NCBI GenBank assembly: GCA_944384485.1 | Contig: CALWTO010000032.1 | Span: 1 to 35,926 of the forward strand | Direction of reading: 5' to 3' | Length of the DNA stretch: 35,926 nt | Source of the DNA: an uncultured Clostridia bacterium | GTDB lineage: Bacteria; Bacillota; Clostridia; Christensenellales; UBA1242 | In this document: piece by piece, positions 3,657-6,991 of the stretch | Layout of the letters: each line of letters begins with the position of its first letter | How positions within the stretch are numbered: the first letter of the stretch is position 1 | The notes under the pieces: generated by a model | Told to the model about the DNA's origin: nothing | Seen by the model: the letters and a program-made list of their open reading frames with translations, nothing else | Databases searched by the model: none | Position numbers and translations under genes: made by a program

Positions 3657-4934
3657 CTATGGGTTTAATCTATCTGGTCCTCTAAATATAAACATACTTT
3701 CCTTAATTGTTGGAATATTTAATAACAACATAATCATTCTATCCAACCCTAATCCAAATCCACCATGAGGAGGCATACCATATTTGAAAAATTCAAGGTA
3801 GAATTCAACATCTTTATCGAGGCCTTTCTCTTTTGCTTGTTGTTTAATGATTTCATATCTATGCTCTCTTTGTGCACCGCTGGTAATTTCAATCCCCTTC
3901 CAAATCAAGTCATAACCTTGTAATATTCCATTTTTTCTCATATGATAGAACGCACGCTTTTCAGGTCCATAATCAGTAACAAACAAAAACTCATGGTTAA
4001 ATTTATCTTTGGCAAGCTGTTCACATAATCTTTCAGCTTCCGTTGTTAAATCAACTTTTTCTTCATCCGGAACTGTAAAATTGTATCTCTCTTCAAGTTC
4101 TTTGTAAATATCTTGTAACTTCATTTTTGGGAAAGGTAGTGTTGGAACAACCACATCAACGCCGTAAACTTCTCTAATTCTATCCCCATGTTTTTCTTTT
4201 ATTTTTTGGAGCATATAAGTAAGCATTTCTTCTTCTAGTTGCATAACATCTTCAAAAGAGTTAATATAAGAAAATTCTATATCAAAGCCAGTAAATTCAG
4301 TAGCATGCTTTTTAGTATGCGATTTTTCTGCTCTAAAAACTGGACCACACTCGAATATTCTTTCAAATCCACTAGCCATTGCCATTTGTTTATAAAATTG
4401 TGGGCTCTGCGCTAAATATGCTTTACGATCAAAATACTTTACTTCAAAAACTTCAGAACCACTTTCGCTAGCTGTTGGAATGAGTTTTGGAGTGTGAATT
4501 TCAATAAAATCTTTATTAAGTAAAAATTCTCTTAAAGCATTTGTCATTGTAGTTTGGACTTGAAACAACAATTGGTTTTTTTCTTGCCTTAAATCAAGCC
4601 ATCTATAATCTAACCTTTGATCAATAAAACTTTCAGGTCCTATAGGTAATGCGTCTGCTTTAGATGTCAATTCAACATGATCAGGAATAATTTCAATTCC
4701 TCCCAATTTGACAAATTCATTTGCAACTGCTTCCCCCACAACTTTGACAGTACTTTCCAAAGTTGCATGAGAAAAAATTTCAGCGATTTCAGGTTTTTCG
4801 CTTTTAACAACAGTGATTTGTATTTTACCAGATAAATCTCTAATAACTACAAATTGCATATTTTTTTTATCGCGTAAATTTTCAATAAATCCTTGCACTT
4901 CAACTTTTCCAGGCTTAATATCTGCAATTTTCAT
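3657..4934 (-). CDS. aspS: Aspartate--tRNA ligase, short archaeal/eukaryote-like type (no GAD insertion)
   Basis: 425 aa with IEIHTPKL, YLAQSPQFYKQM, GPVFRAEKS, EITSGAQREH and YGMPPHGGFGLG. Confidence 0.92.
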   Translation of the reverse strand: MKIADIKPGKVEVQGFIENLRDKKNMQFVVIRDLSGKIQITVVKSEKPEIAEIFSHATLESTVKVVGEAVANEFVKLGGIEIIPDHVELTSKADALPIGPESFIDQRLDYRWLDLRQEKNQLLFQVQTTMTNALREFLLNKDFIEIHTPKLIPTASESGSEVFEVKYFDRKAYLAQSPQFYKQMAMASGFERIFECGPVFRAEKSHTKKHATEFTGFDIEFSYINSFEDVMQLEEEMLTYMLQKIKEKHGDRIREVYGVDVVVPTLPFPKMKLQDIYKELEERYNFTVPDEEKVDLTTEAERLCEQLAKDKFNHEFLFVTDYGPEKRAFYHMRKNGILQGYDLIWKGIEITSGAQREHRYEIIKQQAKEKGLDKDVEFYLEFFKYGMPPHGGFGLGLDRMIMLLLNIPTIKESMFIFRGPDRLNP

Positions 4935-4957
4935 ATGTTCTCCTTATTATCTAGATC

Positions 4958-4986
4958 ATTATAGCACAACAAAAAATTCTTGTAAA
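4958..4986 (-). promoter_or_regulatory. Sigma-A promoter of aspS-asnS(-tRNA-Ser)
   Basis: TTTACA, 17 nt, TATAAT, with extended -10 TGc. Confidence 0.7.
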
Positions 4987-5027
4987 GAAAATCAAATTGA
5001 TTTTATTAAAGCCTTAATATTTTTTAA

Positions 5028-5146
5028 AATAAAAAAAGTTTGCTTGTTTTGCAAAACCTTTTTGGTGCGAGCGGTGGAAGCCTTTACCCCTAAAACGCTT
5101 TGCATTTTTGGGGACCCCACGAACCCGTGGGTTCGACTCCCACTCT
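5028..5146 (-). repeat. tRNA-Leu-derived structured repeat (duplicated 3' end and terminator, inverted T-arm, hairpin insert)
   Basis: 5028-5081 is a near-identical direct repeat of 5169-5226. 5127-5143 is the exact reverse complement of the tRNA T-arm segment 5219-5235. 5087-5113 forms a GC-clamped hairpin. Confidence 0.85.
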
Positions 5147-5171
5147 TTTAAATTTTTTCTGCTTTTATAAT

Positions 5172-5207
5172 AAAAAAAAGTTTTGCTTGTTTTGCACAAA
5201 ACCTTTT
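5172..5207 (-). terminator. Probable terminator after tRNA-Leu
   Basis: Minus strand reads AAAAGGTTTTG...CAAAACTTTTTTTT, a stem followed by a U-tract. A second copy lies at about 5031-5062. Confidence 0.55.
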
Positions 5208-5289
5208 TGGTGCGAGCGGTGGGAGTCGAACCCACACTCTTTCGAACTTGCCCCTTAAACAAGCGCGTCTGCCATTCCGCCACGCTCGC
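5208..5289 (-). tRNA. tRNA-Leu(AAG)
   Basis: GCGAGCGTGGCGGAATGGCAGACGCG-CTTGT-TTAAGGG-GCAAG-TTCGAAAGAGT-GTGGGTTCGACTCCCAC-CGCTCGC-A-CCA. Leu-type D-arm, variable arm and A73; anticodon at 5256-5254. Confidence 0.92.
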
Positions 5290-5313
5290 AAATTATTAAA
5301 TGTTACGCTATAA

Positions 5314-5342
5314 ATTATAATTATTTATATTTAGTTTGTCAA
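5314..5342 (-). promoter_or_regulatory. Consensus sigma-A promoter of tRNA-Leu
   Basis: TTGACA (5342-5337), 17 nt, TATAAT (5319-5314). Confidence 0.88.
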
Positions 5343-5366
5343 CAATTTTTTCCATATTTAATAAAA

Positions 5367-5389
5367 AAGAAACAAAAAATTTGTTTCTT
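5367..5389 (-). terminator. AT-rich terminator-like hairpin after the ferritin-like gene
   Basis: AAGAAACAAA-AAA-TTTGTTTCTT inverted repeat, followed by a U-tract on the minus strand. Confidence 0.5.
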
Positions 5390-5672
5390 ATTTAAATTCT
5401 TCATTAAATTCTTTTAACCCTTTTTCAAATAATGTTTTGCTTTCAGGATCTAAATAGAATAATAACCCAAACAATTCTCCTACATGCACTTTTTCTTCAT
5501 CTGCAATATGCCTAATTGTATTTTTTGCAGAGGTTTCATTTGTTTGATTATAATGATTTTCATATTGTATTATGGCTTCAAGTTCACCAATAATATCTTC
5601 TCTAGTATTTTGTATAGTTAAAAATCTATTTGACTGATTTTGATTGTCTAAAATACTAAAAATTCTTCTCAT
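5388..5672 (-). CDS. Small ferritin-like (half-rubrerythrin/encapsulated-ferritin-like) protein
   Basis: ELEAIIQYE...HIADEEKVHVGEL...LDP di-iron motifs and a strong SD (AAGGAGGG). Confidence 0.8.
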   Translation of the reverse strand: MRRIFSILDNQNQSNRFLTIQNTREDIIGELEAIIQYENHYNQTNETSAKNTIRHIADEEKVHVGELFGLLFYLDPESKTLFEKGLKEFNEEFK

Positions 5673-5734
5673 TTTCCCTCCTTAACAATTTTATATATGC
5701 ATTAATTTTAAGGAAAGTTAAAAAAGTGAGTTTT

Positions 5735-6991
5735 TTAACCCACTTCTTTTTTATCATCTATTTTTACTATTTCAGGATCGACATTTTCTTCCTGAATAAA
5801 TTTTTCTGTTATTATTACCTTTTTAACATCCTTAAAGCTTGGAACTTCAAACATTAATTTTGTCATTTTTGTTTTTTTTTTTGTTCTCAATCCCCTTGCT
5901 CCCGTTTTTAAATCCATTGCCTTTTTAGCAATAGCTTTAACAGCCTCCTGTGAAAATTCAATTTCAACTCCATCCATTTTAAACATAAGTTTGTATTGTT
6001 TTACAATTGAATTTTTTGGCTCCGTCAATATTTTTACTAATGCTTCTTGTGTTAAATCGTCAAGACCAACAACGACAGGCAATCTTCCAATAAATTCAGG
6101 AATAAGACCAAATTTTATTAAATCGTTTGGTTGAATATCTTTAACATAATTGACCTTTTCTTTTTTTTTATTTTTTTTAATTGAAGCGTTAAAACCAAGA
6201 GATGTATCATTTATTCTAGAATCAATAATTTTATCTATGCCAACAAATGCTCCACCACAAATAAATAAGATATTTGTTGTATCGATTTGAATCATTTCTT
6301 GATGAGGATGTTTTCTGCCACCTTGCGGAGGAACTGATGCTACAGTGCTTTCCATAATCTTTAAAAGGGCTTGTTGAACACCTTCTCCAGCGACATCTCG
6401 TGTAATTGAAACATTTTGCGTTTTCTTTGCAATTTTATCAATTTCATCAATGTAAATAATGCCTCTCTGTGCTTTTTCTATATCATAATCGGCATTTTGA
6501 ATTAGTTTTAATAAAATATTTTCTACATCATCTCCAACATAACCCGCTTCTGTCAAAGTTGTTGCATCAGCAGCTGCAAAAGGAACTTTTAAAATTTTTG
6601 CTAAAGTTTTCGCAAGAAGAGTTTTTCCAGATCCGGTTGGACCAACCATTAAAATGTTGCTTTTTTCAAGTTCAACATCATCTTTCTCCGTTGAAGTTTT
6701 AGCAAAATTATAATTTAATCTTTTATAGTGATTATAAACAGCAACTGCCAAAACTTTTTTTGCTTCATCTTGACCGATAACATAGTCATCAAGAGCCTTT
6801 TTGATCTCAATTGGTGTAGGCAATTCTATCTTTTCAAAAGAGGATTTTTTCCCTAGTTCAGCAATTATGTCTTTACATATAAGAACACATTCATCACAAA
6901 TGTAAGCATCTCCGTTTGGACTTGCAATCAATTTTTTGGCTTCTTTTTGATTTTTGCCACAAAAAGAACATTTATAATCATTTTGTTCCAT
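5735..6991 (-). CDS. clpX: ATP-dependent Clp protease ATP-binding subunit ClpX
   Basis: CSFC/CDEC zinc finger, [25 protein letters not shown] and PPQGGRKHP. Confidence 0.97.

Follow-up and report, generated by a model that had tools for sequence, protein, structure and literature searches.

The closest described counterpart of the element reported here belongs to the Escherichia coli tyrT operon. In strain K-12, three units of 178 nt follow tyrV, and each of them consists of an inverted T-arm (14/17 positions), the sequence AAGGTTCGA, an insert and the last 19 nt of the tRNA (19/19 identical). The annotated RNA RttR, with a length of 171 nt, reaches from 8 nt past the tRNA to the CCA of the copy, and its minimum-energy fold is closed by pairing of the inverted piece with the 3' copy, so that an ...ACCA tail remains. 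In two papers, RttR is described as being made from a repeat unit of the tyrT operon, and in one of them its mode of action is called unknown.

A comparable unit is present in the window analysed here, a whole stretch of 35,926 nt of DNA from an uncultured Clostridia bacterium. It shares with the tyrT-tyrV/RttR units the same-strand position behind a tRNA, an end that extends from the T-loop to the CCA, the inverted T-arm, the insertion in the T-loop and the predicted fold. The tandem arrangement of the E. coli units is likewise found among the relatives of the element, whereas the window itself holds one unit. In contrast, no sequence or model similarity connects the two systems: the Rfam scan at E-values up to 10 gave no match to rtT (RF00391), which we take to be the family of RttR. 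The E. coli insert measures ~76 nt and is unrelated, and in E. coli no terminator separates the tRNA from the repeat. Moreover, RttR is an annotated RNA, whereas an RNA from the window element is a prediction. It would best be filed under a plan that is already known from E. coli tyrT/RttR, with the lineage-specific variant carrying a REP-like hairpin as the new part. A first-pass annotation, made from the letters of the window without database searches, had put it forward as the best candidate there for an undescribed element. This description needs to be narrowed, as the tyrT repeats including RttR share the plan.

The insert of the unit invites comparison with REP, BIME and REPIN sequences and with mitochondrial GC clusters, as it is a short, imperfect and GC-rich palindrome that is intergenic, present in multiple copies in relatives, often clustered, and one-stranded with regard to its G-T pairs. 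REP-type elements are characterized by a GTAG head, a linked RAYT (Y1 HUH) and an organization into inverted doublets. The hairpin module (hp) differs in that its copies have no GTAG head and no linked RAYT, its clusters are direct and not inverted doublets, it occurs once in this genome, and it displays a marked affinity for tRNA loops. Unlike a MITE, it presents no target-site duplication at the junctions examined and no autonomous parent was found; a separate repeat of ~340 nt with inverted ends carries it internally. The direct repeat of the tRNA 3' end beginning in the T-loop is also reminiscent of attL/attR pairs. Here, however, the repeats lie ~145 nt apart without a gene between them, the inverted T-arm and the hairpin are located inside, and mirror versions made of tRNA 5' parts exist upstream of tRNAs.

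Architecture of the unit behind tRNA-Leu(AAG)

The parent gene is a tRNA-Leu with anticodon AAG and an encoded CCA at 5208..5289 (ARAGORN; Rfam tRNA, 50.6 bits); this gene and the features that follow lie on the minus strand unless noted otherwise. Its promoter, TTGACA-17-TATAAT at 5314..5342, matches the sigma-70-type consensus at 12/12 positions. The gene is followed by an AT-rich, terminator-like hairpin with a T run at 5172..5207, which forms a 12-bp stem in the predicted fold and was not called by the consensus scan because it has fewer than three G-C pairs. An AT-rich spacer of 28 nt (5144..5171), not conserved in the comparison between species, leads to the element, which starts 64 nt past the CCA of the tRNA on the same strand. 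Behind the element, a second terminator-like hairpin at 5031..5062 duplicates the first one (direct repeats D1 and D2); comparison of the sequence with itself gave 97% identity between 5052-5080 and 5197-5225 and 84% between 5020-5056 and 5163-5199. The next gene, read from its translation as an aspartyl-tRNA synthetase, has its promoter at 4986-4958, and a scan of the interval between tRNA-Leu and the element returned no promoter-like site.

The anticodon AAG (A34) is common to all 19 species' loci that were fetched for tRNA-Leu(AAG). A34 in tRNA-Leu is unusual for bacteria, and where it occurs in tRNAs other than tRNA-Arg, a connection with broader inosine use has been drawn for some Firmicutes.

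The element is a rearranged spare copy of the 3' part of tRNA-Leu with a palindromic module placed in the spare T-loop. It opens with an inverted T-arm copy at 5127..5143 (inverted repeat I3), which provides the 5' strands of the predicted helices P1 and P2; the 17-nt pair formed by 5143-5127 and 5219-5235 is 100% complementary. Next, GGGTTCG at 5120..5126 corresponds to the sense T-stem and the start of the T-loop (tRNA positions 51-57) and is conserved in alignment A1. The hairpin module follows as an insert of 38 nt at 5082..5119, the only copy in the genome, whose stem pairs covary. Its stem-loop occupies 5087-5113, with the GC-capped hairpin CCCCAAAAATGC-AAA-GCGTTTTAGGGG at 5113-5087. Finally, a copy of the tRNA 3' end through CCA at 5063..5081, 17/19 identical to the original (17/18 when counted from tRNA position 59), contributes the 3' strand of P1 together with a tail of 11 nt. 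In the minimum-energy fold, P1 (GUGGGAGUC/GGCUUCCAC) and two inner hairpins build a three-way junction that is closed by pairing of the inverted T-arm piece with the 3' copy (-36 kcal/mol, z -3.45); one of 200 shuffles folded equally well. The five-part anatomy had been laid out in the first-pass annotation and proved correct to the base, with all coordinates reproduced, and the multibranch structure suggested there is the predicted minimum-energy fold.

For all 29 tRNAs of the genome, the best inverted match to the T-arm was sought within 500 nt downstream. It amounts to 17/17 at tRNA-Leu(AAG) and to at most 11/17 at the other 28, which places the match beyond chance. Between 5063 and 5208 there are no open reading frames beyond chance frames, in agreement with the earlier remark that the site holds neither an integrase nor cargo. 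On the plus strand, 5127-5143 reads as a sense T-arm hairpin with a T-rich tail and was flagged by the terminator scan. As a model, this hairpin could block antisense transcription that enters the tRNA; the T-rich tail beside it is not kept in relatives.

The arrangement is not a misassembly, a point that had been raised for checking. A 793-nt contig from another run, possibly of the source sample (X1), is free of differences over 4850-5275, and contigs of two further studies span 5048-5213 (X2) and 5118-5444 (X19), thereby covering the unique core and both repeat edges. The window contains one unit, a count to be read with the provisos that short-read assembly could collapse an array and that relatives show two to four tandem units. 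The sequencing runs that contain the window come from metagenomes of the chicken gut and from related ones. No RNA run is listed among them, a run with the label RNA-Seq being probably DNA. No excision joints were seen over the region in four runs, three of which are contigs that drop rare variants.

A family across the genus

BLAST-type searches of 40 relatives yielded the first related loci, with part of the element matched at several tRNAs. In their common plan, an inverted T-arm leads to GGGTTCG, then to a hairpin built as GGGTTCCCTGAAAAT-loop-ATTTTTAGGG, to TAAGG and to a 3' end to CCA; this plan adjoins tRNA-Leu(CAA, TAA, AAG) and tRNA-Glu(TTC, CTC), and the arms always fit the adjoining tRNA. 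A covariance model, R1, was built from 15 copies (alignment A1) and applied with a cut-off of E up to 0.01. It matches in 106 of the 151 genomes of the genus (72 of the 102 of good quality), with 0-27 matches per genome (1-27 where present) and hundreds across the genus, numbers that are not equivalent to copy numbers. Copies are mostly located 25-60 nt behind Leu or Glu tRNAs, within a range of 25-340 nt, and relatives contain tandem arrays of two to four units as well as decayed and truncated copies.

Thirty-five strong full-length R1 matches were collected from 30 fetched loci. Of these, 28 lie downstream of a tRNA-Leu or tRNA-Glu on the same strand; the remaining ones comprise one beside a 5'-truncated tRNA-Leu, five at contig ends and one orphan. 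All 28 copies with a called tRNA share 16-18 of 18 positions with the 3' end of that very tRNA. At the Glu loci (9/9), wherever the T-loop of the tRNA has its C or T variant, the inverted piece and the sense copy have it too. At the level of aligned sequences, the matching to the parent tRNA is shown to be concerted. The core of the unit is conserved across species like the tRNA itself, whereas the spacer and the terminators are unalignable; the terminators are unrelated between genomes G000 and G130, yet duplicated inside each of them. The inverted piece has its 5' boundary at tRNA position 65, both in the Leu copies and in those of Glu.

The first-pass annotation had expected that a genuine family would be found at other tRNAs, each flanked by the T-arm sequence of its own tRNA. 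Such insertions were indeed recovered in relatives at tRNA-Leu(CAA, TAA, AAG, CAG), tRNA-Glu(TTC, CTC), tRNA-Met and tRNA-Ser, and the covariance modelling suggested there gave the genus-wide matches and the covarying stem pairs. Recurrence at many tRNAs, each with flanks of the own tRNA, identifies a family and not the scar of one event.

Beyond the genus, an exact pattern of the T-loop type was run over 185,579 species genomes of bacteria and archaea (one per species) and returned 28 stretches; 27 belong to records whose titles name uncultured Clostridia, Firmicutes or Eubacteriales; the remaining one is a chance match in DNA of 77% GC. An Rfam scan of 4500-5800 with E up to 10 detected the tRNA and otherwise weak chance matches, and a scan of 16 related loci at the gathering score detected tRNAs only. 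A hammerhead or other small-ribozyme reading of the three-way junction received no support from Rfam and was dropped. Literature searches retrieved no description of this tRNA-linked hairpin family.

Scaffold and hairpin module as separate units

The hairpin is a discrete module of ~45 nt, GC-rich within an AT-rich genome (29.7% GC), where it is single-copy. In five relatives it occupies 10-20 sites per genome, and a reversed-pattern control found none. The contexts of 36 sites were examined in two genomes. The module was seen in the T-loops of spare 3' copies of tRNA-Leu and of tRNA-Met, the latter with two hairpins; in D-loops that belong to spare 5' copies situated upstream of tRNA-Leu(TAA, TAG), with up to four tandem units; in a D-loop copy downstream of tRNA-Leu(AAG) (L015); and in an antisense D-loop of tRNA-Ser (L037), where hairpin and tRNA have opposite orientations. 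In addition, it occurs in head-to-tail clusters, in the ~340-nt repeat and at sites unrelated to tRNAs. Its ends are defined, with a start of (T/C)TCG-GGG, a finish of GGG-TRAWAG and one to three loop bases replaced, and its T-loop junction shares TTCG. Copies in T-loops are present only where the T-loop of the tRNA reads TTCGA; tRNA-Leu(AAG) genes with TTCAAGT carry either another insert or a D-loop copy.

The stem pairs covary and the pairing is kept: paired cells make up 94% of the alignment, double changes affect 13 pairs, and the observed score was not reached by any of 500 shuffles. At the pair adjacent to the loop, 37 copies have C-G, 11 have G-C and five have U-A, and orthologous hairpins differ by compensatory changes, for example GATTTATC versus GACTTGTC.

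No enzyme tracks the module. Y1/RAYT proteins (PF01797), whose co-occurrence had been considered at the outset, exist in 17 of the 151 genomes and are absent from this one, and no hairpin lies near them at the six loci examined. A reverse transcriptase is encoded in three of the five high-copy genomes. Tyrosine recombinases number 5-10 in the five high-copy genomes, 2-4 in four genomes without a match and one here, which over ten related genomes represents a trend only. A phage origin was also considered and rejected, with five matching stretches in 2.9 million viral contigs, one of which resembles the module.

The ~340-nt repeat is non-coding, has the inverted ends CAGACTGTAGA..AAAC / GTTT..TCTACAGTCTG and contains one or two internal hairpins (L098, L099, L104 and L105 in G060; L086 in G066). 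At least four copies exist in one genome, with no rRNA or known RNA family nearby. A reading of this recurrent context as an rRNA leader was discarded, as no rRNA lies within ~4 kb and the context is the repeat with inverted ends. A related hairpin (GGGGTCCCCGAAAA...) was noticed in G413 and other genomes of genus g74 within family f34 (L122-L133), at 41 sites in one genome of 1.7 Mb. It again stands beside tandem partial copies of tRNA-Pro and tRNA-Arg. Similar modules with partial tRNA-Pro and tRNA-Arg copies as neighbours occur in other families of the order.

The tRNA-derived scaffold, in turn, exists without this hairpin. Of the 29 tRNAs in the genome of the window, five (Leu-AAG, Thr, Val, Met, Asn) are flanked by sequence derived from themselves, in which an inverted piece separates the copy from the real tRNA; at four of the five (Thr, Val, Met, Asn), other inserts take the place of hp. 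At tRNA-Thr (C42, 2984-3243), the 19-nt 3' end is repeated twice more downstream with a period of 93 nt, each copy being preceded by GGTTCG and an 11-nt insert; this unit was found in none of 60 other genomes of the genus and is therefore species-specific. The tRNA-Val flank (C24, ~770-979) runs from an inverted 3' end, in which the CCA complement is included, through GGTTC and an insert of 17 nt to the 3' end. Next to tRNA-Met (C44, 24090-24275) lies a short inverted piece with the 3' end after it, and at tRNA-Asn (C4, ~4200-4415) an upstream 5' copy is combined with an insert and an inverted piece of the anticodon arm. In all four cases the inverted piece pairs with the sense copy. The upstream copies at tRNA-Leu(TAG) of relatives are built alike, whereas four upstream units at tRNA-Leu(TAA) have no inverted piece. 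The scaffold and the hairpin are independent of one another.

At tRNA-Leu(AAG) itself, 5 of 18 species have a 3'-end copy and 6 of 18 have an inverted T-arm half, and in G005 the orthologous tRNA-aspS spacer is empty. A second repeat type with the same plan was observed behind the same tRNA in G006 and G011 (L004, 1650-1940; L006, 1650-1765). It is composed of GTGGGACTT|TCAAGTCC, a hairpin-built insert of ~85 nt, and CCGCTCGCACCA with a duplicated terminator; it is tandem in G006, and G015 has the palindrome only.

These observations divide the proposal of the first-pass annotation that a REP/MITE-like element targets T-loops. Recurrence of the family at other tRNAs bears it out in part. The occurrence of the hairpin in D-loops, clusters, the ~340-nt repeat and non-tRNA sites, the lack of a transposase that tracks it, and the scaffolds devoid of it at four tRNAs of the same genome and at E. 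coli tyrT speak against the remainder.

Origin, upkeep and possible roles of the unit

The element is not an autonomous mobile element. We favor, at a probability of roughly 0.55, the reading that it is an RttR-like, tRNA-linked repeat unit with a REP-like hairpin, which arose by local rearrangement and is matched to its tRNA by templated correction. Recurrent local rearrangement at tRNA genes would create flanks in the order sense, antisense, sense, and the scaffold most likely originated through template switching or fold-back at the short inverted repeats of the tRNA itself. Template switching at short inverted repeats is described in one study as a source of this very order (PMC11790251). 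Units may then be gained and lost by unequal crossing-over between direct repeats, a step suggested by the existence of arrays and by terminators that are unrelated between G000 and G130 but duplicated within each genome. The REP- or GC-cluster-like hairpin would land in the loops of spare copies by joining at the microhomology TTCG and be tolerated there, since insertion into the real tRNA would presumably be lethal. Short-tract templated correction would keep the three tRNA-derived pieces alike, as the T-loop variant tracked by all three in the nine Glu loci suggests. Without a promoter of its own, the unit would be transcribed only via read-through of the weak first terminator, and the resulting RNA is predicted to form a three-way junction whose tRNA-like ...ACCA tail is free, in the shape predicted for RttR.

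Several observations are difficult for this reading. No junction microhomology explains the origin of the inverted piece, and simple two-step template-switch models, worked out by hand, failed to yield the joint at which the inverted piece meets GGGTTCG. A 5' boundary that stays at tRNA position 65 from Leu to Glu copies would be better explained by one origin or a dedicated mechanism than by repeated accidents. Furthermore, the core conservation and the compensatory hairpin changes, in genomes of 0.8-1.3 Mb, count against the view of the unit as a by-product of rearrangement. From the alignments, they look like purifying selection for structure, which a by-product would not be predicted to show.

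Such selection would be expected of a functional tRNA-trailer RNA, either an RttR-like sRNA that is cut from read-through transcripts and ends in a CCA tail, or a cis-acting switch that plays a T-arm clamp against a decoy, with the hairpin as a protein-binding arm. This alternative is tentative, and we consider it rather unlikely. The core is conserved like the tRNA and the flanks are not, and the pairing of the stems is kept (94% of cells, 13 double-change pairs, 0/500 shuffles), with the reservation that the pairing of P1 partly follows from both of its arms copying the tRNA. The G-U pairs fall on the tRNA-sense strand, and in three of the four copies tested the sense strand folds better than its complement (z of -3.4 to -4.5 versus -1.5 to -1.9). 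The real tRNA and the decoy always have the inverted piece between them, which is how an alternative-pairing switch would be laid out, and in the minimum-energy fold of the full read-through RNA the T-arm of the tRNA is predicted to pair with this piece. E. coli RttR, an annotated RNA with the same layout, offers a precedent insofar as its production from the tyrT operon is described in the two papers mentioned above. Nevertheless, the unit has no promoter, and judging from the sequence, the terminator ahead of it argues against routine expression; its presence is patchy even at one tRNA (5/18 species), decayed and truncated copies exist, the hairpin of the Ser copy is inverted relative to its tRNA, and the number of model matches varies from 0 to 27 per genome.

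Still less probable is a reading in which the hairpin is a non-autonomous, REP/MITE-like mobile element that a trans-acting enzyme inserts into tRNA loops of the TTCGA type, generating the inverted and direct duplications in the process. The module does have discrete ends with one to three bases replaced at T-loops, Leu D-loops and the antisense D-loop of tRNA-Ser, a shared TTCG junction, 10-20 sites in each of five relatives and a restriction of its T-loop copies to TTCGA T-loops, with another insert or a D-loop copy at the TTCAAGT tRNA-Leu(AAG) genes. Yet neither Y1/RAYT (17/151 genomes, hairpin near none of six loci) nor reverse transcriptase (three of five high-copy genomes) follows it, and one tyrosine recombinase accompanies one hairpin copy here. 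No target-site duplication was seen, the same scaffold holds unrelated inserts in this genome and in E. coli, and viral contigs offer one resembling module among five matches in 2.9 million. An att scar, the remnant of an integrase-borne element that had entered the T-loop with a replacement 3' end and later lost nearly all of its sequence, would account for direct repeats that begin in the T-loop and end exactly at CCA at several loci (L024, L031, L034, L040), and the 3' flanks of tRNAs are synteny breakpoints in the genus. We regard this scenario as very improbable. None of the loci examined contains an integrase or cargo, and among those of relatives no full integrative element lies between a tRNA and a hairpin-bearing copy. 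Moreover, the same architecture occurs at no fewer than eight different tRNAs, each with its own sequence, the repeat often continues through the terminator, and neither the inverted piece nor the mirror-image 5' versions found upstream of tRNAs are explained.

The tRNA-linked repeat unit connects an odd local structure to a family of repeats extending over a genus of uncultured Clostridia from the chicken gut and to the tyrT repeats and RttR of E. coli. A plan that recurs in distant lineages with unrelated inserts may point to a general self-rearrangement of tRNA flanks or to a class of tRNA-trailer RNAs, and both ideas are testable given the many natural variants, with hundreds of model matches, several tRNAs and several kinds of insert. 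It is quite doubtful, in our estimation, that the layout of real tRNA, inverted arm, interrupted decoy and CCA, seen here and in E. coli tyrT, marks a widespread and unrecognised class of tRNA-coupled RNA modules. Were this the case, the inverted arm of read-through transcripts would hold either the parent tRNA or the decoy in a clamp; this would gate tRNA maturation or decay and set free a CCA-tailed small RNA, with the hairpin as an exchangeable effector arm. In practical terms, short-read assemblies are interrupted by the units at tRNA genes, and an att site or a pseudo-tRNA can be wrongly read into them.

Small differences between strains were also noted in the first terminator. In strains from two other studies, 1 nt is missing at 5172 and 2 nt are missing at 5195; these deletions make this terminator more similar to the second copy, which would fit an ongoing exchange between both repeats.
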